A stretch of DNA of 64,000 nt from Escherichia coli (GTDB taxonomy: Bacteria > Pseudomonadota > Gammaproteobacteria > Enterobacterales > Enterobacteriaceae): NCBI RefSeq assembly GCF_003018115.1, contig NZ_CP027457.1, one strand, 5' to 3'. A program made the position numbers and the translations under genes. This document shows, one piece after another, positions 880 through 49,308 of this stretch (position 1 is its first letter; each line of letters starts with the position of its first letter). The notes below the pieces were generated by a model that saw only the letters and a program-made list of their open reading frames with translations, was not told the DNA's origin and searched no databases.

Positions 880-2600
880 CATGATCAATTATGAATTGCA
901 ACTATTTCTGTAGTCACTTTTGTGGGGACAGTCCACAAAACTGCCAACTTCCGCTTCTTGCTCTTAGCGGACATTAGCATAGGCTATTTACCATAACGCC
1001 TCATTACGCGCACCGCCCAGACTGACTCAGCGCGTTTCTGGCATATCCCCGGTAAAACAAGTAACAAACCACCCGAAAATGAACACCAGAAACGCGACTT
1101 AAGAATCTACCCTATGAATGGATATGCACTCAACCGAATCGATCTTGGTTTCAATCTTTTTTATCGGGATCAGGCTTCTTTTTAGGTAACTTCGGGGGCT
1201 TAACTTGCTGATGACTTTGCGTTCGGCGCGTAAGCCAGGGATGGTCAGCTTTAGGTTTAACATAGTATTTTGAGCGTAAATCAATACGGGCATTATCCAC
1301 TCGTTCATGGACACTCTTTTCATCATCCAGTGGTATAGGCTCCGGGCCATCAACATACTTTTCCCAGCCCAGCGCTTTCCCGTCATACAGAACGTTAATT
1401 TCACCGTCAAAGTTCTCGCATACAGTAACAACCGAATGCCTAAGTCGATATCCCCGGCCCTCACTGCGTACCTGAAACGCACTGCTTTTGTACTGGAAAG
1501 TGAGATTTTTAGACAGAACGCGCTTCGCCTGTAGGCTGAAGATATAACCCAGTTCCTCTTCAGAATGGTGCACATCAAGATGAGCATTATCAGTAGTACG
1601 AGGCGACGTAGCGAACCGGTTGTTATAGGCTTCAATAAAGGTCGGCAACCATGCATTTGCTGTTTCAATATCACTGATATTCTGAAGCCGCATTTCTTTG
1701 ACCAGCCTGTCCTGTAGTGTCTGATTGGCGCGCTCTACCCGCCCTTTTGCCTGCGGGCTGTTGGCATGGATTGGCTCGATGCCCAGTGTCTTTATCGCAC
1801 GAGTGAACTGGGTCAGCTCACCTTCCCGCTCTGGGTTATTTACCCTGAATATACTGTGTCTATCAGAGTAGAGAGCGAGCGGTACGCCATGATCATTAAG
1901 GTAACCCCGGAGGGTTTCCATGTAAGCCCGGGTTGTTTCAGCAGGCACAAAACGCAACGCCATCAACGCACTGGTGGCATCATCAATGAAAACGATCAGT
2001 GTACATCTGGGGCCTCGATTTTCAAACCAGTCATGAGGTGAGCCATCAATCTGGATCAGTTCACCGTAAGATGGTCGTCGCATGCGGCGTTGATATATAC
2101 GGGCAATTTTACGACGGCGTTCACGCCATAACCCCTCTTCTATCATCCACTTTCTGAGAGTTTCAACGGATAAAGATAAACCGTGTATCTCGCGCAATTT
2201 TTCGCACGCAAACGTAGGTCCAAAATCAGCGTAACGGCCTTTGAGGAGTGAAATTACTGTTGCTCTGAATTCAGTAGAAAAGGAATTATTAGGACGCTTT
2301 CCACGTCGGTGGGAAACCAGACCAGAAGGCCCTTCATTTCTATACCGTTGCACCAGACGTTTAACCTGCCGAATAGAAATGCCAATGCGTGCCGCAGCTT
2401 GTTCCTGAATAATCTGAAGTCGGTGGAGTTCCTTATGACTCATCGTAACAGTCTCTTTGATCATGAAAAATCCCCCAGAGAATTGTCTGGGGACATTTTA
2501 GAATGGTTCAAAGGGGACATTACAGCTTGGTGTTAACAATAGCCTGCTTCTCCGTGCCTTTCGGCACGTAAGAGGCTAACCTACATGTGTCTAGCATGAA
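880..2600 (-). mobile_element. IS481-family-like insertion sequence, boundaries not resolved
   Basis: single 437-aa transposase ORF with N-terminal HTH and rve-type DDE core; interrupts prophage synteny between flxA and the replication module; ends are approximate. Confidence 0.45.
1151..2464 (-). CDS. DDE transposase, IS481-family-like
   Basis: 437 aa; HTH-like N-terminus (ARIGISIRQVKRLVQRY), integrase-core motifs (IDGSPHDWF..., LYSDRHSIF, E in RANQTLQDRL), basic C-terminal tail. Confidence 0.75.
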   Translation of the reverse strand: MIKETVTMSHKELHRLQIIQEQAAARIGISIRQVKRLVQRYRNEGPSGLVSHRRGKRPNNSFSTEFRATVISLLKGRYADFGPTFACEKLREIHGLSLSVETLRKWMIEEGLWRERRRKIARIYQRRMRRPSYGELIQIDGSPHDWFENRGPRCTLIVFIDDATSALMALRFVPAETTRAYMETLRGYLNDHGVPLALYSDRHSIFRVNNPEREGELTQFTRAIKTLGIEPIHANSPQAKGRVERANQTLQDRLVKEMRLQNISDIETANAWLPTFIEAYNNRFATSPRTTDNAHLDVHHSEEELGYIFSLQAKRVLSKNLTFQYKSSAFQVRSEGRGYRLRHSVVTVCENFDGEINVLYDGKALGWEKYVDGPEPIPLDDEKSVHERVDNARIDLRSKYYVKPKADHPWLTRRTQSHQQVKPPKLPKKKPDPDKKD

Positions 2601-2798
2601 ATTGGCCTCAGATTAATGTTAAGCGTCTTGCAGGACGCGTAATGTTAACTGGGGCTTTTCTCTATCTGCCGTTGGTGTCCATGCCCGAGGCAGATAGCCT
2701 CAAGCACCCGCAGTCATTCTACTTAACTAAGATTTCCCCGCAAACCGTTTTTGTCCAGCACAGTAAATATCCAACTAAACCAATGGAGTTCGCTGTAT

Positions 2799-4146: not shown

Positions 4147-4490
4147 TCCCATTACCATCAGGGACAAAGATCTGGCTGGTCGCTGGCATCACCGATATGA
4201 GAAACGGCTTCAACGGCCTGGCGGCAAAGGTGCAGACGACGCTGAAAGACGATCCGATGTCAGGTCACGTTTTTATCTTCCGTGGGCGTAATGGCAGTCA
4301 GGTAAAGCTCCTCTGGTCTACCGGCGATGGACTGTGTCTGCTGACCAAACGGCTGGAGCGCGGCCGCTTCGCCTGGCCGTCAGCCCGGGATGGCAAAGTG
4401 TTCCTCACACCGGCACAGCTGGCGATGCTGCTGGAAGGTATCGACTGGCGGCAGCCTAAAAGACTGCTTACGTCCCTGACTATGTTGTAA
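4143..4490 (+). CDS. IS66-family TnpB (orf2)
   Basis: 115 aa MIPLPSGTKIWLVAGITDMRNGFNGLAAKVQ...; overlaps the tnpA stop. Confidence 0.8.
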   Translation: MIPLPSGTKIWLVAGITDMRNGFNGLAAKVQTTLKDDPMSGHVFIFRGRNGSQVKLLWSTGDGLCLLTKRLERGRFAWPSARDGKVFLTPAQLAMLLEGIDWRQPKRLLTSLTML

Positions 4491-4538: not shown

Positions 4539-6074
4539 ATGAGCAGCTCACTTCCTGACGATATCAATGCACTGAAACGTCTCCTTGCCGAACAGGAGGC
4601 GCTGAACCGTGCCCTGCAGGAAAAGCTGAACGAGCGTGAACGCGAAATAGACCATCTGCAGGCACAGCTGGATAAGCTGCGCCGGATGAACTTCGGCAGC
4701 CGCTCGGAAAAAGTCTCCCGTCGTATCGCACAGATGGAAGCTGACCTGAAGGCACTTCAGAAAGAAAGTGATACCCTTACCGGTCGGGTTGACGACCCGG
4801 CCGTGCAGCGCCCGCTGCGTCAAACCCGCACCCGCAAACCGTTCCCCGAATCACTCCCCCGCGATGAAAAACGGCTGCTGCCGGCAGCGTCATGCTGCCC
4901 GGAATGTGGAGGCTCGCTGAGCTATCTGGGTGAGGATGCCGCCGAACAGCTGGAGCTGATGCGCAGCGCCTTCCGGGTTATCCGGACTGTACGTGAAAAG
5001 CATGCCTGTACTCAGTGCGATGCCATCGTGCAGGCCCCCGCGCCTTCACGGCCCATCGAGCGGGGTATCGCAGGACCGGGGCTGCTGGCCCGCGTGCTGA
5101 TCTCAAAGTATGCAGAGCACACCCCGCTGTACCGCCAGTCTGAAATGTACGGCCGCCAGGGCGTGGAGCTGAGTCGTTCACTGCTGTCGGGCTGGGTGGA
5201 TGCATGCTGCCGGCTACTGTCACCGCTGGAAGAAGCGCTTCAGGACTATGTGCTGACTGACGGTAAGCTCCATGCTGATGACACGCCTGTCCCGGTGCTG
5301 TTGCCAGGCAATAAGAAAACGAAGACCGGGCGGTTATGGACCTACGTTCGTGACGACCGTAACGCCGGGTCAACGCTGGCGCCGGCGGTGTGGTTCGCTT
5401 ACAGCCCGGACAGAAAAGGCATCCATCCGCAGACCCATCTTGCGGGGTTCAGTGGTGTACTGCAGGCGGATGCATACGCCGGGTTCAACGAGCTGTACCG
5501 GGATGGCCGGATAACGGAAGCCGCCTGTTGGGCTCACGCCCGCCGTAAAATCCACGATGTGCACGTTCGCACCCCGTCAGCCCTGACGGAGGAAGCGCTG
5601 AAACGGATCGGCGAACTGTACGCCATCGAGGCAGAGATAAGGGGAATGACGGCGGAGCAGCGCCTTGCCGAACGTCAGTTGAAAACGAAACCGCTGCTGA
5701 AATCCCTGGAAAGCTGGCTGCGTGAAAAGATGAAAACCCTGTCGCGACACTCAGAACTGGCGAAAGCGTTCGCATACGCCCTGAACCAGTGGCCGGCGCT
5801 GACGTACTATGCAGATGATGGCTGGGCTGAGGCGGACAATAACATCGCTGAAAATGCGTTGCGGATGGTCAGTCTGGGCCGCAAAAACTACCTGTTCTTC
5901 GGTTCGGATCATGGAGGAGAGCGGGGAGCGCTGCTGTACAGCCTGATCGGGACGTGCAAACTGAACGGAGTGGAGCCAGAAAGCTACCTCCGCTATGTCC
6001 TTGACGTCATAGCCGACTGGCCGATAAACCGGGTCGGCGAACTGCTCCCCCTGGCGCGTAGCACTGCCGACTGA
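4539..6074 (+). CDS. IS66-family transposase TnpC (orf3)
   Basis: 511 aa with N-terminal coiled-coil, CxxC pairs (CCPECG, CTQCD) and DDE-type core typical of IS66 transposases. Confidence 0.85.
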
Positions 6075-10622: not shown

Positions 10623-10675
10623 TTTCTGGTGACGTTTGGCGGTATCAGTTTTACTCCGTGACTGCTCTGCCGCCC
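10623..10675 (+). ncRNA. dicF: DicF small RNA (ftsZ-targeting, processed from the dicA operon transcript)
   Basis: sequence TTTCTGGTGACGTTTGGCGGTATCAGTTTTACTCCGTGACTGCTCTGCCGCCC followed by a T-run, between ydfC and dicB. Confidence 0.8.
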
Positions 10676-18904: not shown

Positions 18905-19465
18905 ATGCCAAGCGCCCACAGTGTTAAGCTACGCCCGCTGGAGCGTGAAGATTTACGCTATGTACATCAACTCGACAATAACGCCAGTGTGATGCGTTAC
19001 TGGTTTGAGGAACCCTACGAAGCCTTTGTTGAACTCTCTGATCTGTATGATAAGCATATTCACGATCAGAGCGAACGGCGCTTTGTGGTGGAATGTGACG
19101 GCGAAAAAGCCGGTCTGGTGGAGCTGGTGGAAATTAACCATGTTCATCGCCGCGCAGAATTTCAGATAATTATCTCCCCGGAGTATCAGGGGAAAGGTCT
19201 GGCAACCCGTGCCGCCAAATTAGCAATGGACTATGGCTTCACCGTTCTCAATCTCTATAAGCTGTATCTGATCGTCGATAAAGAGAATGAAAAAGCGATT
19301 CACATTTACCGCAAGCTTGGCTTTACGGTTGAAGGTGAATTGATGCATGAGTTCTTTATTAATGGTCAATATCGTAATGCCATTCGCATGTGTATATTCC
19401 AGCATCAGTATCTGGCAGAGCACAAAACACCGGGTCAGACTCTCCTGAAGCCGACCGCACAATAG
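18905..19465 (+). CDS. speG: spermidine N1-acetyltransferase
   Basis: 186 aa GNAT-family protein [23 protein letters not shown]... Confidence 0.9.
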
Positions 19466-19467
19466 CA

Positions 19468-20178
19468 TTAATAATAATCGATCGTATTTTTGATGGTGTA
19501 AACCCGTTCGACGGCGGGTTTTACTCCTTCATCAACAATGATCAGCTGACAGTCCACCGGATTGGCGTGACTGTCATATTCACAGCTCTGTTTTACATTA
19601 CCAACTCGTTGATTATTCAGTAAAGTAACCGCTGTGTAATCTAATTTTTTGATCGGGTCCGTTGATGGCGTGGCGCTGACAGATAATGTTTTGTCGTTAC
19701 TTTTCGTGGTTTTACCCAGTGGATAACCCTGATCATCATAGCGATATTCCATCTGCATTTGTTTGCTGCTGGCTTTAATCACGAAGCCATTATCATCGGT
19801 TTCCCAACTCACCCCGGCGGAAGGTAATTCCGCTAGCTGGCATTTTCCCTGTAAACGTACTCTCTTCTCCAGCGTCTCGGCATCACGGTAATAATTGGCG
19901 TCCAGTACCAGAGCGACCACGGTATTATTTTCCAGATCCAGTAATTCGAGTGAATCAAAACAGCCTTCTTCCGACAAAGTCCCCGAAACACGTTTCGTCA
20001 CTTCACCTTGCTCATCCATTAATGTCTGAGTGAAATCTTTTACCGGACCACGCAGCGGATCAAAATCGAATTCATTAGAGAAACTGGCCATCTCAGGAGT
20101 AAATGAAAGTGTTACCTCTGTGCGGTCACATCCTGTGAGGAATATCGCGAGTAAGCATGGTAGTAATTTGTATTTCAC
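19468..20178 (-). CDS. ynfC: lipoprotein YnfC
   Basis: lipobox LTGC; likely GTG start at 20178. Confidence 0.85.
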   Translation of the reverse strand: MKYKLLPCLLAIFLTGCDRTEVTLSFTPEMASFSNEFDFDPLRGPVKDFTQTLMDEQGEVTKRVSGTLSEEGCFDSLELLDLENNTVVALVLDANYYRDAETLEKRVRLQGKCQLAELPSAGVSWETDDNGFVIKASSKQMQMEYRYDDQGYPLGKTTKSNDKTLSVSATPSTDPIKKLDYTAVTLLNNQRVGNVKQSCEYDSHANPVDCQLIIVDEGVKPAVERVYTIKNTIDYY

Positions 20179-20285
20179 AACAGTCACCAGAGAGTAGAGA
20201 TGATTCTCAATCATAGTAGCAAATACAGTACTTTACACGTTAAATGCTATGCTTAAAGAAGTTATCTTCGCGTAAGGAGCTTATG

Positions 20286-27226: not shown

Positions 27227-27841
27227 ATGACCCATTTTTCACAGCAAGATAATTTTTCTGTCGCGGCGCGCGTGTTGGGCGCGCTGTTTTATTACGCTCC
27301 AGAGAGTGCGGAAGCCGCACCTCTGGTTGCGGTACTCACCCGTGACGGCTGGGAAACTCAGTGGCCTCTACCAGAAGCGTCATTAGCGCCGCTGGTGACG
27401 GCTTTTCAGACACAGTGTGAAGAGACTCACGCCCAGGCCTGGCAGCGTTTGTTTGTCGGCCCGTGGGCACTGCCGTCTCCGCCGTGGGGGTCGGTCTGGC
27501 TGGATCGCGAATCTGTGCTGTTTGGCGATTCAACATTGGCACTTCGTCAGTGGATGCGCGAGAAAGGCATTCAGTTTGAAATGAAGCAAAACGAACCGGA
27601 AGATCATTTTGGTTCACTGCTGTTGATGGCTGCGTGGTTGGCGGAGAATGGTCGCCAGACAGAATGCGAAGAATTGCTGGCATGGCACCTTTTTCCCTGG
27701 TCAACACGTTTTCTTGACGTTTTTATCGAAAAAGCAGAACACCCTTTCTACCGTGCACTGGGTGAACTGGCTCGCTTAACGCTGGCGCAATGGCAATCAC
27801 AACTGTTGATTCCTGTCGCGGTTAAACCACTCTTTCGATAG
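27227..27841 (+). CDS. dmsD: Tat proofreading chaperone DmsD
   Basis: MTHFSQQDNFSVAARVLGALFYYAPESAEA... Confidence 0.9.
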   Translation: MTHFSQQDNFSVAARVLGALFYYAPESAEAAPLVAVLTRDGWETQWPLPEASLAPLVTAFQTQCEETHAQAWQRLFVGPWALPSPPWGSVWLDRESVLFGDSTLALRQWMREKGIQFEMKQNEPEDHFGSLLLMAAWLAENGRQTECEELLAWHLFPWSTRFLDVFIEKAEHPFYRALGELARLTLAQWQSQLLIPVAVKPLFR

Positions 27842-28034
27842 GATGACCGTAATATTGCCGGATAGTGGCGATTACGCGCAATTCGGCAATAATAGGTTAC
27901 AGTGTCACGTTTTTTGTCTCTTAAAGCACGCACTGCTTTTGCAGCTGGCCTCTTTTGCCGCAAAATAGTCGCCCGTGTTTCATTGCCCATTTCTGCTCAT
28001 GCATCATCTACACACCTATCCGGATCTGCGCACT

Positions 28035-29291
28035 ATGTTCCGCCGTCTGCTTATCGCAACAGTCGTCGGTATTCTCGCGGCCTTTGCCGTTGCCGGGTTT
28101 CGTCATGCGATGCTGCTACTGGAGTGGTTGTTCCTCAATAATGACTCCGGCAGTCTGGTCAATGCAGCGACAAACCTTTCCCCCTGGCGACGGCTGCTAA
28201 CTCCGGCGCTCGGCGGACTGGCGGCGGGTTTGTTGCTGATGGGCTGGCAGAAATTTACCCAGCAACGCCCTCATGCGCCGACCGATTACATGGAAGCGTT
28301 GCAAACCGATGTGCAGTTTGATTACGCAGCAAGCCTGGTTAAATCGCTTGCCTCTCTGCTGGTAGTAACCAGCGGCAGTGCAATTGGTCGCGAAGGTGCG
28401 ATGATTCTTTTAGCTGCCCTTGCCGCCTCCTGTTTTGCCCAACGTTTTACGCCACGCCAGGAGTGGAAATTATGGATCGCCTGTGGGGCCGCGGCGGGAA
28501 TGGCTGCGGCCTATCGTGCCCCGCTTGCTGGCAGTTTATTTATAGCCGAAGTGCTGTTTGGCACTATGATGTTGGCCTCTCTCGGCCCGGTGATTATTTC
28601 CGCCGTCGTGGCATTGCTGGTTAGCAATCTGATTAATCATAGCGACGCGTTACTCTACAGCGTACAACTCTCAGTGACGGTTCAGGCTCGTGACTATGCG
28701 CTGATTATCAGTACAGGTGTGCTGGCAGGTCTGTGCGGACCACTGTTGTTAACGTTAATGAACGCCTGTCATCGTGGATTTGTGAGTCTCAAACTTGCGC
28801 CGCCCTGGCAACTGGCACTGGGCGGGTTGATCGTGGGTCTGCTTTCCCTGTTCACACCTGCAGTGTGGGGCAACGGCTATAGCACCGTACAATCCTTTTT
28901 AACCGCCCCGCCACTGTTAATGATCATTGCCGGGATCTTCCTTTGTAAACTGTGTGCCGTGCTGGCGAGTAGCGGTTCCGGCGCACCCGGTGGTGTCTTT
29001 ACACCGACGCTATTTATCGGTCTTGCCATTGGCATGTTGTATGGTCGTAGCCTGGGATTATGGTTCCCTGATGGCGAAGAAATTACGCTTTTACTCGGAT
29101 TGACCGGGATGGCGACACTGTTGGCGGCGACCACGCACGCGCCGATTATGTCGACGTTGATGATATGTGAAATGACCGGGGAGTATCAGCTACTCCCCGG
29201 TTTATTGATTGCCTGCGTAATTGCGTCGGTAATCTCGCGGACGTTACACCGTGAGTCTATCTACCGCCAGCACACTGCGCAGCATAGCTAA
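28035..29291 (+). CDS. clcB: voltage-gated ClC-type chloride channel ClcB
   Basis: 418 aa; GREG and GxFxP ClC motifs. Confidence 0.9.
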
Positions 29292-29939
29292 GCGGATGTA
29301 TTGCCCCAGTTCACGCTGTTCGGCGCGCGGCAGATAAGGCAGTTCACCAATGAGCGGTGCCGGAAGTTTTTTACCGAGCACATCAATGATTTCCGCATAA
29401 TGCGCCAGTCCTGGGTTGATTCGGTTAGCCACCCAGCCAATGAGCGGCAGCCCGTCGTTGGCAATCGCCTGAGCTGTTAGCAGCGCATGGTTAATGCAAC
29501 CTTCCTGAATACCGACAACCATCAACACCGGCAGTTGTTCCTGCACCACCCATTCAGAGAGTGGACGCAAATCATTCATCAGACTGCGCCAGCCGCCAGT
29601 CCCTTCTACCACGACATGATCGACTTTATCGGTCAGGTTTGCCAGGCCGTTTGAAATGAGGGTGTAATTGATTGGGCAACTGTGCGCCACGCTACTTTCT
29701 TCTTCGCTTAACGCGATAGGATTAACTGCTTCATAAGGCAGTTCGATGGTTGAAACACTCTGCAACACCAGGGCATCTTTATTACGCAGCCCTTCGGGTG
29801 TCTCTTTGCTCCCCTTCGCTACGGGTTTATATCCCGCAACCGTTTTTCCCTGGGAGGCTAACGCTTGTAGCAATGCGCGGGAAACCACCGTTTTCCCTAC
29901 AGAAGTGTCTGTACCGGTAATAAAGAAACGCTTCAGCAT
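29244..29939 (-). CDS. ynfK: dethiobiotin synthetase paralog YnfK
   Basis: P-loop GTDTSVGKT; 3' end overlaps clcB convergently. Confidence 0.85.
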
Positions 29940-30063
29940 CACTAACTCCACCGTTATGCTTCACAAATATAAACCAGGAAAATAATTAACCTTGAAAGTC
30001 TAAGTTATGCTTTCCTGGCCCAAATTGAGATAGCGCAAATTTTGGTAGAACAGTTAAAAAATG

Positions 30064-31284
30064 TTAACCCTGCAACAGACGAATCAACAAAGAACCGTTA
30101 TACATCGCGTCTTTTACCAGCGCAGCGCCTGCCATCGTGCCCTGGTTAGAGAACTGAGTACTCTCAACGCTAATGTGCTGACTATACGCAGGAAGGGCCT
30201 GCTGACGGATGCTGTCTGAGATCACCGGGAAGAGGATATCTGCCGCTTTACTTAACGGTGAGCCAATCAGTATTTTTTGTGGGTTAAATAAATTCACCAT
30301 GATGGCAAGAATGCGCCCTACATGCGCGCCCACCCCGGTAATGATGTCTTTTGCCAGCAGATCGCCGCGCAATGCCGCCTGACACAATGAGTCCACGGTT
30401 AACGGTTGCCCATGTAACATCGAGCTCATGGATTGATTGAGACGCAGCTGTGCCAGCTCAAGAATACTGTCCACACTGGCGATGGTTTCGAGGCAGCCGT
30501 GGTTCCCGCAATAACAACGTTTCCCATACGGGTCGACCTGTGTGTGGCCTATTTCCACGAGGCTACTGCTGCCTGCGTGTAGCAGATGACCATCGGTAAT
30601 GACGCCCGCCCCCACGTTGTGATCGATAACCACCTGAATCACATCGCGCGCCCCGCGTGAGGCACCAAACAAGGCCTCTGCCATCGTCCATGCGCTGATA
30701 TCATGCTGAATATAAACCGGAACGCCGGTATGCTGCTCCAGAGCCTCGCCGAGCGGCATCTCTTTTACATCCTCGTAGAACGGCATGCGATGTACAATGC
30801 CATTTTCCGTATCAATAATTCCCGGCAGGGTTATGGCAATCGAAGTTAGACGCTCAAGTTTTTTCTGGTGGCGGATAAAAAACTGATCGATATGGGAAAT
30901 GATACGATCCAGCAATGGCGAGTCATCTTTTAACGCCAGTTCCTGCGACTCTTCCACCACCAGTTTGCTGCTCAGATCGCGCAGAGCAAGGAAAATCTCC
31001 CCGCGACTAATGCGCAGAGAAAGATAGTGCCAGGCTTCAGTTTCAACCACCAGCCCCACCGCCGGACGGCCACGGTTCCCCGCTTCTTTGATTTCCAGCT
31101 CTTGCACCAGGTGTGCTTCGAGCATCTCACGGACAATTTTAGTGATACTGGCAGGAGCCAGCTGCGCCAGACGGGAAAGATCGATACGCGAGACTGGACC
31201 AAGCTGATCAATCAGGCGATAAACCGCGCCCGCGTTGGTCTGCTTTATTTGATCAATGTGCCCAGGCTGGTTTTCAGCAACCAC
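30064..31284 (-). CDS. mlc: ROK-family global regulator Mlc (DgsA)
   Basis: 406 aa MVAENQPGHIDQIKQTNAGAVYRLIDQ... Confidence 0.9.
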   Translation of the reverse strand: MVAENQPGHIDQIKQTNAGAVYRLIDQLGPVSRIDLSRLAQLAPASITKIVREMLEAHLVQELEIKEAGNRGRPAVGLVVETEAWHYLSLRISRGEIFLALRDLSSKLVVEESQELALKDDSPLLDRIISHIDQFFIRHQKKLERLTSIAITLPGIIDTENGIVHRMPFYEDVKEMPLGEALEQHTGVPVYIQHDISAWTMAEALFGASRGARDVIQVVIDHNVGAGVITDGHLLHAGSSSLVEIGHTQVDPYGKRCYCGNHGCLETIASVDSILELAQLRLNQSMSSMLHGQPLTVDSLCQAALRGDLLAKDIITGVGAHVGRILAIMVNLFNPQKILIGSPLSKAADILFPVISDSIRQQALPAYSQHISVESTQFSNQGTMAGAALVKDAMYNGSLLIRLLQG

Positions 31285-36632: not shown

Positions 36633-37667
36633 ATGGCAAAGCCGATCATCACGCTCAATGGCCTAAAAATCGTCATTATGTTGGGAATGCTGGTCATTAT
36701 TCTCTGCGGTATCCGTTTTGCCGCCGAGATCATCGTGCCGTTTATTCTCGCATTATTTATTGCTGTTATTCTTAACCCGCTGGTGCAACACATGGTCCGC
36801 TGGCGAGTGCCGCGTGTACTGGCGGTGTCGATTTTGATGACCATCATCGTGATGGCGATGGTGTTGCTATTAGCTTACTTGGGTTCCGCGCTCAACGAGT
36901 TGACGCGGACGTTACCACAATATCGCAACTCTATTATGACGCCGCTGCAAGCTCTTGAGCCGTTGTTGCAACGCGTAGGGATTGACGTCTCAGTTGACCA
37001 ACTGGCGCATTACATTGATCCGAACGCGGCGATGACGTTGCTCACCAACTTATTGACGCAGTTATCTAATGCCATGTCATCAATATTTTTATTGCTGCTG
37101 ACGGTGCTGTTTATGCTGCTCGAAGTGCCACAATTGCCCGGAAAATTTCAGCAAATGATGGCGCGTCCGGTTGAAGGGATGGCGGCGATTCAGCGTGCGA
37201 TTGACAGTGTGTCTCATTATCTGGTGCTGAAAACAGCCATCAGCATCATCACCGGCCTGGTCGCCTGGGCGATGCTCGCCGCACTCGATGTTCGCTTCGC
37301 TTTTGTCTGGGGATTGCTGGCCTTTGCGCTTAATTACATCCCTAATATTGGTTCAGTTCTCGCGGCAATCCCCCCTATCGCTCAGGTACTGGTGTTTAAT
37401 GGCTTCTACGAAGCGTTGCTGGTGCTGGCGGGATATCTGCTGATTAATCTGGTCTTCGGCAATATTCTGGAGCCGCGCATCATGGGGCGTGGGCTGGGTC
37501 TTTCCACATTGGTGGTATTTTTGTCGTTGATTTTTTGGGGATGGTTGTTAGGACCGGTGGGTATGCGGCTTTCCGTGCCGTTGACAATTATTGTCAAAAT
37601 TGCGCTTGAACAAACAGCGGGAGGTCAAAGCATCGCCGTTCTGTTAAGCGATCTCAATAAAGAGTGA
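36633..37667 (+). CDS. tqsA: AI-2 transport protein TqsA (AI-2E family)
   Basis: 344-aa polytopic membrane protein. Confidence 0.85.
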
Positions 37668-37691
37668 CGGCCTCCGCAGAGGCCGTCAGGG

Positions 37692-39083
<1,392 letters not shown>

Positions 39084-46945: not shown

Positions 46946-49308
<2,363 letters not shown>

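Follow-up and report, generated by a model that had tools for sequence, protein, structure and literature searches.

Two genes that converge until their coding sequences run into each other leave no DNA between them in which a transcript could end. The clcB and ynfK genes of Escherichia coli are such a pair, and they raise the question of where and how the two messengers end, and of whether transcription of either gene disturbs the other. The locus was studied within a window of 64,000 nucleotides (the whole stretch of DNA analysed here), and positions are given in window coordinates unless stated otherwise. The original prediction held that the 3' ends of the two genes overlap by 48 bp, that this leaves no room for separate terminators, and that transcription of one gene may consequently interfere with that of the other.

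The clcB-ynfK overlap and the protein tails that it encodes

The coding features of the region are the following:

28035..29291, + strand: clcB coding sequence, 418 aa, MG1655-like form (open reading frame list, RefSeq annotation, structural match to ClcA)
29244..29939, - strand: ynfK coding sequence, BioD paralogue, 231 aa (open reading frame list, RefSeq annotation, structural match to BioD)
29244..29291, both strands: dual-coding overlap, 48 bp, specifying the end of ClcB (residues 404-418, stop) and that of YnfK (residues 217-231, stop)

The convergent 48-bp overlap at 29244-29291 was confirmed by the coordinates of the open reading frames and by RefSeq, in which an identical overlap is annotated in MG1655 (clcB, 1665315..1666571; bidA/ynfK, 1666524..1667219; bidA being the present MG1655 RefSeq name of ynfK) and in J53. 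The overlap itself is thus already known and can be read from public annotation. The clcB/ynfK region was found in 5415 of 5426 complete E. coli genomes, and the segment from 27800 to 30100 is 100% identical to strain F9792. For clcB, alternative starts exist upstream of the one adopted here: PGAP places it at 27999, and the frame is open from a GTG at 27975.

The stop codons (TAA at 29289-29291 on the plus strand for clcB, TAA at 29246-29244 on the minus strand for ynfK) lie at opposite ends of the shared segment. Across it, the frames on the two strands are exactly in register, codon facing codon: the ynfK stop faces the TTA codon of ClcB Leu404, and the clcB stop faces the TTA codon of YnfK Leu217. 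Both genes are genuine protein genes, with orthologues in 80 species, and not chance open frames. ClcB matches ClcA structures over residues 5-404 (E = 5e-27); residues 3-220 of YnfK match structures of E. coli BioD (E = 5e-65).

These alignments delimit what the overlap encodes. The ClcA-homologous core of ClcB stops at residue 404, the first codon of the overlap, and the shared DNA codes for the ClcB tail past the last transmembrane helix. On the opposite strand, BioD homology stops at YnfK residue 220, so that residues 221-231 form an extension beyond BioD; the overlap codes for the last four BioD-like residues and for this 11-residue extension. Overlap is apparently tolerated at this point because only non-core C-terminal tails are encoded there. 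As to which tail is the older, a first homologue search gave only close Enterobacteriaceae, and distant ClcB homologues were obtained from a representative search. These distant members of the ClcB family (45-49% identity) end in R-x-L-x3-S-I-Y followed by 2-3 residues, with the spacing found in E. coli ClcB. In the four cases in which the contig was examined, the genomic context differs and none of the genes adjoins a bioD-like gene. The occurrence of the tail motif in proteins with other gene contexts indicates that the ClcB tail is ancestral to the family. We infer that the YnfK extension, being the antisense of the ClcB tail, probably arose by read-through of ynfK into the 3' end of clcB.

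The age of the arrangement was assessed in a survey of one genome per species, which yielded 80 Enterobacteriaceae loci. YnfK is 231 aa long at all 80. Where the 3' end of clcB is readable and uninterrupted, as it is at 64 loci, ynfK always overlaps it, by 27, 39, 45, 48 or 66 bp, and the length is invariably a multiple of 3. The 48-bp form occurs in Escherichia, Kluyvera, Klebsiella, Raoultella, Buttiauxella and Cedecea, the 45-bp form in Salmonella and Citrobacter, and the 66-bp form in Enterobacter and Leclercia; overlaps of 27 or 39 bp are found in a few others. All of these differences are due to a shifted clcB stop, with zero indels among the 64 loci. Codon usage in the ynfK tail follows the presence of the neighbour. 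When clcB is present, Val226 is encoded by GTA in 58 of 58 sequences, facing the TAC codon of a ClcB tyrosine, and Ala231 by GCG in 56 of 57; when clcB is absent, other residues or codons (GCC, for example) occupy these positions. Likewise, ynfK ends in TAA or TAG next to clcB and mostly in TGA without it. Judged from these alignments, the codon choice in the ynfK tail is a visible dual-coding constraint. Comparison with K-12 revealed a single SNP in the overlap, at 29254, which alters both proteins conservatively (E/D in ClcB, L/V in YnfK). As read from this comparative record, clcB and ynfK are an old and stable convergent dual-coding pair.

A conserved stem-loop inside clcB

Beyond the ynfK stop codon, the minus strand runs antisense to clcB and contains a stem-loop, listed here with its flanks:

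29175..29201, - strand: stem-loop with a perfect 11-bp stem (29175-29185 with 29191-29201) and a 5-nt loop (folding, conservation, covariation)
29166..29174, - strand: tail 3' of the stem, UCAUUUCAC, nearly invariant in the alignment
29202..29213, + strand: tail after the stem, UUAUUGAUUGCC, flagged by the consensus scan

The structure begins 41 nt beyond the ynfK stop, is GC-rich, and lies within the clcB codons for T-G-E-Y-Q-L-L-P-G. Folding gives -21.5 kcal/mol whichever strand is taken. A consensus terminator scan flagged a strong hairpin at 29174-29202, the only strong terminator-like match in the region. The minus-strand tail UCAUUUCAC contains 3-4 U, and the scan raised no intrinsic terminator on this strand; its U-richness is weak, since the same bases specify Cys-Glu-Met-Thr of ClcB.

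A stem-loop folds at this site in all 64 species that have a clcB 3' end, with energies from -13.7 to -22 kcal/mol. Several lines of comparison show that the ClcB peptide alone does not account for its maintenance. Among 62 distinct sequences, the synonymous sites of the stem are frozen (Thr is ACC in 62 of 62, Pro CCC in 62 of 62, and Gly is GGG in 53, GGA in 8 and GGC in 1), while nearby fourfold-degenerate codons of equally conserved residues show 1.2-1.9 bits of codon entropy. At pair 20-34 of the stem, 31 sequences have C-G and 21 have G-C. Of all stem cells in the alignment, 86% are paired; with the partner shifted by 1-3 columns, the figure is 27-48%. The codons involved change together: of 27 sequences with a Glu codon, 26 have Leu CTC, and of 37 with a Gln codon, 31 have a Leu codon ending in G. 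The alternation of Glu GAG/Leu CTC with Gln CAG/Leu CTG is thus, on the evidence of the alignment, a compensatory change, in which an amino acid swap is matched by a silent one. When the peptide was recoded with local codon usage, a stability like that of the E. coli hairpin was reached in 1.5e-4 of the trials, and values of at most 0.0016 were obtained for four other lineages. Finally, 5287 of 5420 E. coli genomes share an identical 61-mer with the hairpin at its centre, as against 776 of 5347 for a control 61-mer lying 78 nt away; this comparison is rough (a single control window, with effects of BLAST end-trimming) and was given little weight. Taken together, the comparative data show that the hairpin is conserved beyond coding need.

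Loci in which the two genes have been separated by evolution indicate which of them the hairpin belongs to. In Trabulsiella (L048) and Lelliottia (L058), clcB has been lost and the sequence flanking the stem on both sides is gone, yet 8-11 nt beyond the ynfK stop the CCGGGCAG...CTGCCCGG stem survives. The stem is also kept in four of four clcB pseudogene remnants (L012, L020, L052, L057), in which the identity of the remnant protein has fallen to 46-64%. Four further loci without clcB (L011, L016, L039, L040) carry a canonical T-run terminator at the position of the stem, two of them with a GGGGAG...CTCCCC stem. Two clcB-less Kosakonia species (L046, L054) are an exception, no strong hairpin having been found after ynfK. 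The converse situation, clcB away from ynfK, is provided by the four distant ClcB homologues (45-49% identity, not beside a bioD-like gene): at the homologous site these show no comparable hairpin (-4 to -13 kcal/mol). In one, the T-G-Q-Y..L-P-G residues are likewise present but are written with GGC and CCG codons, and the hairpin does not form. This distribution strongly ties the hairpin to ynfK and not to clcB.

Ends of the ynfK and clcB transcripts

Published mapping of Rho-dependent termination supplies a coordinate for the minus strand:

29234, - strand: Rho-termination-region coordinate (MG1655 1666514), transferred from supplementary file 2 of PMC7815308

This coordinate lies 10 nt beyond the ynfK stop, and the region is classified as "primary: ynfK, antisense: clcB" (Adams et al. 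2021, PMC7815308). Minus-strand reads upstream and downstream of it number 85 and 11 in the untreated sample, and 292 and 159 with the Rho inhibitor bicyclomycin (BCM); the Rho score is 4.2 (p = 1.5e-6), in a coarse measure based on 800-nt windows and low counts (PMC7815308). By these data, minus-strand transcription mostly stops near the end of ynfK, and Rho contributes to the stop; about half of the drop persists under BCM. Transcription antisense to clcB is for the most part cut short. The tables of PMC7815308, which are from aerobic cultures, list no Term-seq 3' end between MG1655 positions 1666300 and 1666899, ynfK being directly activated by FNR (PMC3688515), and the TERMITe supplements contain no entry at the locus. 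The RNA past the ynfK stop is modestly enriched in C, with a C/G ratio of 1.45 over the first 100 nt and of 1.23 from 100 to 200 nt.

As a canonical intrinsic terminator of ynfK, the site has the GC-rich stem-loop and lacks the U-run (about five or more U in eight positions). Two features of a Rho-dependent terminator with a protective stem-loop were found, namely an increase of read-through when Rho is inhibited and a stable stem without a U-tract. Rho-terminated E. coli mRNAs typically have their steady-state 3' ends at stable stem-loops that lack a U-tract and protect against exonucleases (Dar & Sorek 2018, PMC6061677). The best reading of the 29175-29201 stem-loop is therefore that of a Rho-assisted terminator, or protective 3' hairpin, of ynfK embedded in clcB; that it actually determines the ynfK 3' end is what we infer from the combined data. 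Lacking intergenic DNA, ynfK would have its 3'-end signal written into the codons of its neighbour. The hairpin, together with Rho, would end the ynfK (or mlc-ynfK) transcript, shield its 3' end from exonucleases, or do both, and most minus-strand transcription would thereby be kept from continuing antisense through clcB. The full reading, that of an old dual-coding pair in which a Rho-assisted 3' signal of ynfK is hidden in clcB codons, seems to us rather probable. The idea that there is no room for separate terminators hence stands only in part: the intergenic DNA is indeed nil, but ynfK has a conserved stem-loop inside clcB and a Rho-sensitive drop in reads.

Nothing similar was found for clcB. 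Within ynfK, the consensus scan gave only a weak 5-bp match at 29758, synonymous entropy over ynfK codons 151-216 revealed nothing frozen, and RNAalifold analysis of 29280-29480 in 24 species yielded only -10 kcal/mol with zero covariation. Since no element resembling a clcB terminator was found inside ynfK, read-through antisense to ynfK is possible, and clcB transcripts probably extend into ynfK as far as Rho or a collision allows. The geometry imposes a further consequence: because each stop codon sits at the far end of the overlap, a complete clcB or ynfK mRNA can never end before it. Each full-length mRNA is thus antisense to its partner over at least 48 nt, and over about 118 nt if the ynfK mRNA ends after the hairpin. 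The interference envisaged in the original prediction is possible, especially from clcB into ynfK.

The data bear on three other accounts of the stem-loop. The simplest, that it has no function and is a by-product of a conserved ClcB peptide and local codon habits, with the overlap a neutral accident, can appeal to the peptide itself: EMTG(E/Q)Y.LLPG shows strong conservation, and its codons form a partial palindrome. It does not explain why the fourfold sites are invariant with the otherwise rare codons CCC and GGG next to codons that vary freely, nor why recoding so seldom recovers the observed stability. The silent change that accompanies the Glu to Gln replacement in the pairing partner, the distant homologue in which the same residues are encoded by other codons and no hairpin forms, and the survival of the stem in clcB pseudogene remnants all speak against it. 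On these comparative grounds we take absence of function to be very improbable and largely refuted. Another account dispenses with a terminator for either gene, converging polymerases colliding near the overlap and lowering each other's expression, with the hairpin merely positioning the collisions, in the manner of the programmed-collision model of convergent pairs. The want of intergenic DNA and of a recognisable clcB terminator inside ynfK would suit such an arrangement, and head-on collisions positioned by stem-loops do terminate convergent E. coli pairs (Wang et al., bioRxiv 10.1101/2022.10.23.513370). Here, however, the hairpin is kept, or swapped for a canonical terminator, where clcB and hence convergent transcription are gone, and the drop in minus-strand reads is sensitive to Rho. 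At 85 reads per 800 nt, both genes moreover seem weakly expressed as assayed, and collisions are then unlikely to be frequent; the hairpin, too, is inside clcB rather than between the stops, so that clcB polymerases halted there would leave mRNAs without a stop codon. Collision as the main mechanism is therefore unlikely in our view.

The remaining alternative concerns the strand on which the hairpin acts. It could work mainly on the plus strand, or on both, as a translation-sensitive intragenic terminator: uncoupled clcB transcription would be halted before it runs antisense to ynfK, whereas coupled ribosomes would melt the stem and allow the complete mRNA to be made. In Escherichia the plus-strand stem is followed by UUUAUUGAUUGC and is the region's only strong terminator-like match; it resembles an intrinsic terminator in the clcB direction, placed 87 nt before the clcB stop, and is more terminator-like than the minus-strand version. 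The first Leu codon after the stem (29202) is TTA in 38 of 62 species, which is unusual for enteric bacteria, and the apical pair favours the plus strand, where it is U-A or U.G in 59 of 59 sequences. Against this, the U-richness of the plus-strand tail is lineage-specific and is not conserved beyond Escherichia, Klebsiella having CUGCUGAU. Variants that break a pair on the plus strand and keep it as G.U on the minus strand recur (GGA in 8 sequences, CAA in 11), whereas those tolerated on the plus strand only (ACT, CCT) were never found among the 62 sequences; in the core 9 bp, 97.6% of the cells are paired on the minus strand and 89.5% on the plus strand. Folding energy, equal on the two strands in E. 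coli and averaging -17.4 versus -17.1 kcal/mol across the alignment, is uninformative as a guide to the acting strand. Stem variation thus leans, and only leans, towards the minus-strand RNA. Since the stem also stays beside ynfK after clcB is lost, action principally in the clcB direction strikes us as quite improbable, and we retain the reading of a Rho-assisted 3' signal of ynfK.

Relation to known systems

To judge from the parallels available, the hairpin most resembles the protective stem-loops of Rho-dependent transcripts. Like those described in E. coli mRNAs (PMC6061677), it is stable, has no U-run, lies past the stop codon and is associated with bicyclomycin-sensitive read-through; the C enrichment of the RNA that follows it is modest. 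Unlike them, it is embedded in the coding region of its convergent partner and must also satisfy ClcB. The mscL-arfA pair (Morra et al. 2023, PMC10070815) provides another precedent, in that it consists of convergent E. coli genes whose mRNAs have complementary 3' regions, so that duplex formation and RNase III cleavage are possible. In mscL-arfA, unlike clcB/ynfK, a regulatory effect and RNase III processing have been demonstrated (PMC10070815), and in clcB/ynfK, unlike mscL-arfA, the coding regions themselves overlap. Among convergent overlaps of opposite-strand 3' ends, that of clcB/ynfK belongs with those that are in register ("phase 0"), with a length that is a multiple of 3 (bioRxiv 10.1101/2025.11.07.687268). 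At 48 bp it is far longer than the common 4-nt convergent overlaps, and its phase is not the most frequent among the longer ones (bioRxiv 10.1101/2025.11.07.687268).

A literature search on clcB and ynfK together returned no account of the hairpin or of reciprocal regulation, and a ynfK hairpin with frozen synonymous sites inside a coding sequence seems not to have been described before.

Ju et al. in 2019 reportedly observed bidirectional terminators, with overlapping 3' ends, at convergent E. coli gene pairs. The locus shares with the bidirectional terminators of convergent pairs (bioRxiv 10.1101/2022.10.23.513370) the complementary 3' regions and a single stem-loop common to both directions. 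That class calls for a site between the two stops, and the 29175-29201 hairpin is upstream of the clcB stop, inside the clcB open reading frame. In the clcB direction, unlike a bidirectional terminator, it cannot be a normal end-of-gene terminator.

One may speculate that the frozen hairpin and the antisense overlap together create a putative regulatory link between two stress genes, working in both directions. Anaerobic, FNR-driven transcription of ynfK would lower clcB, either because the RNAs form a duplex that RNase III cleaves or because polymerases collide; conversely, the stem, 87 nt short of the clcB stop, would serve as an attenuator sensitive to translation, the clcB mRNA being completed only when translated. 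We give this proposal little credence at present. If it were true, one coding-embedded stem-loop would be a bidirectional control element for a dual-coding pair.

The overlap alone, present in every E. coli annotation, is of little consequence. What the locus indicates is that, in convergent genes without intergenic space, a 3'-end signal can hide in the codons of the neighbour. Such hidden signals may be recognised by frozen synonymous sites, by compensatory pairs in which an amino acid change is matched by a silent one, and by a stem that outlives its host gene; terminator predictors that mask coding regions miss them. In practical terms, a clean deletion of clcB, or its codon optimisation, would probably harm 3' end formation of ynfK.

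Other convergent ORF pairs and Rfam RNA matches in the window

Besides clcB and ynfK, the window contains further convergent ORF pairs whose 3′ ends overlap or lie close together:

46967-47908 (+) and 47905-49308 (-): 3′ ends overlapping by 4 nt
18905-19465 (+) and 19468-20214 (-): 2-nt gap
36633-37667 (+) and 37692-39080 (-): 24-nt gap
37665-37688: 10-bp GC-rich hairpin filling the 24-nt gap

No terminator-like site was seen within 200 nt on either side of the overlapping pair, whose members may correspond to tus and fumC of K-12. The sole terminator-like match for the pair separated by 2 nt (19295-19312, - strand) falls within the + strand ORF and may be another case of a 3′ signal lying inside an adjacent gene. 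The GC-rich hairpin, which overlaps the stop codon of the + strand ORF, looks like a classic terminator shared by the two genes of its pair.

Two stretches gave Rfam matches above the gathering score:

2538-2709 (-): sok antitoxin RNA (104 bits)
10624-10675 (+): DicF RNA (77 bits)

These matches suggest that a Qin-like defective prophage makes up the left part of the window.

The clcB reading frame and the sequence following the stem

Annotations of the clcB start disagree over the interval 27975-28035, with the open frame extending back to a GTG at 27975. The two annotated forms are:

28035 (+): ATG start of the MG1655 form, 418 aa
27999 (+): start in PGAP records, 430 aa

Directly 3′ of the conserved stem-loop within clcB (29175-29201), the + strand carries a leucine codon (29202-29204) that is TTA in 38 of the 62 species compared. 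TTA is a rare codon in the genomes of these species; its presence here makes the + strand tail following the stem U-rich.

Sequence changes in the overlap and the C-terminal end of ClcB

The 48-bp clcB/ynfK overlap differs from that of MG1655 at a single position, 29254, which is G in this strain and C in K-12. The change alters both proteins together (Glu407/Asp in ClcB, Leu229/Val in YnfK). In E. coli E69 (L003) and two Superficieibacter loci (L053 and L063), clcB ends early, directly after an S-I-Y-R/H motif (around locus position 4670), reducing the overlap with ynfK to 27 bp. The extra clcB stop is silent in ynfK, where it changes one leucine codon to another (CTG to CTA). The final seven residues of ClcB therefore appear dispensable.

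One distant clcB homologue (locus L083) likewise converges on a gene that it overlaps, in this case by 4 nt (4251-4254); the partner encodes a peptidase M20/M28. Distant ClcB-family proteins (P0128-P0138; loci L083, L085, L086 and L087) share a C-terminal R-x-L-x3-S-I-Y and stop two to three residues past it. These proteins, at 45-49% identity, come from unrelated genomic contexts, and the shared ending suggests that R-x-L-x3-S-I-Y is a functional motif of the cytoplasmic tail in this ClC subfamily.
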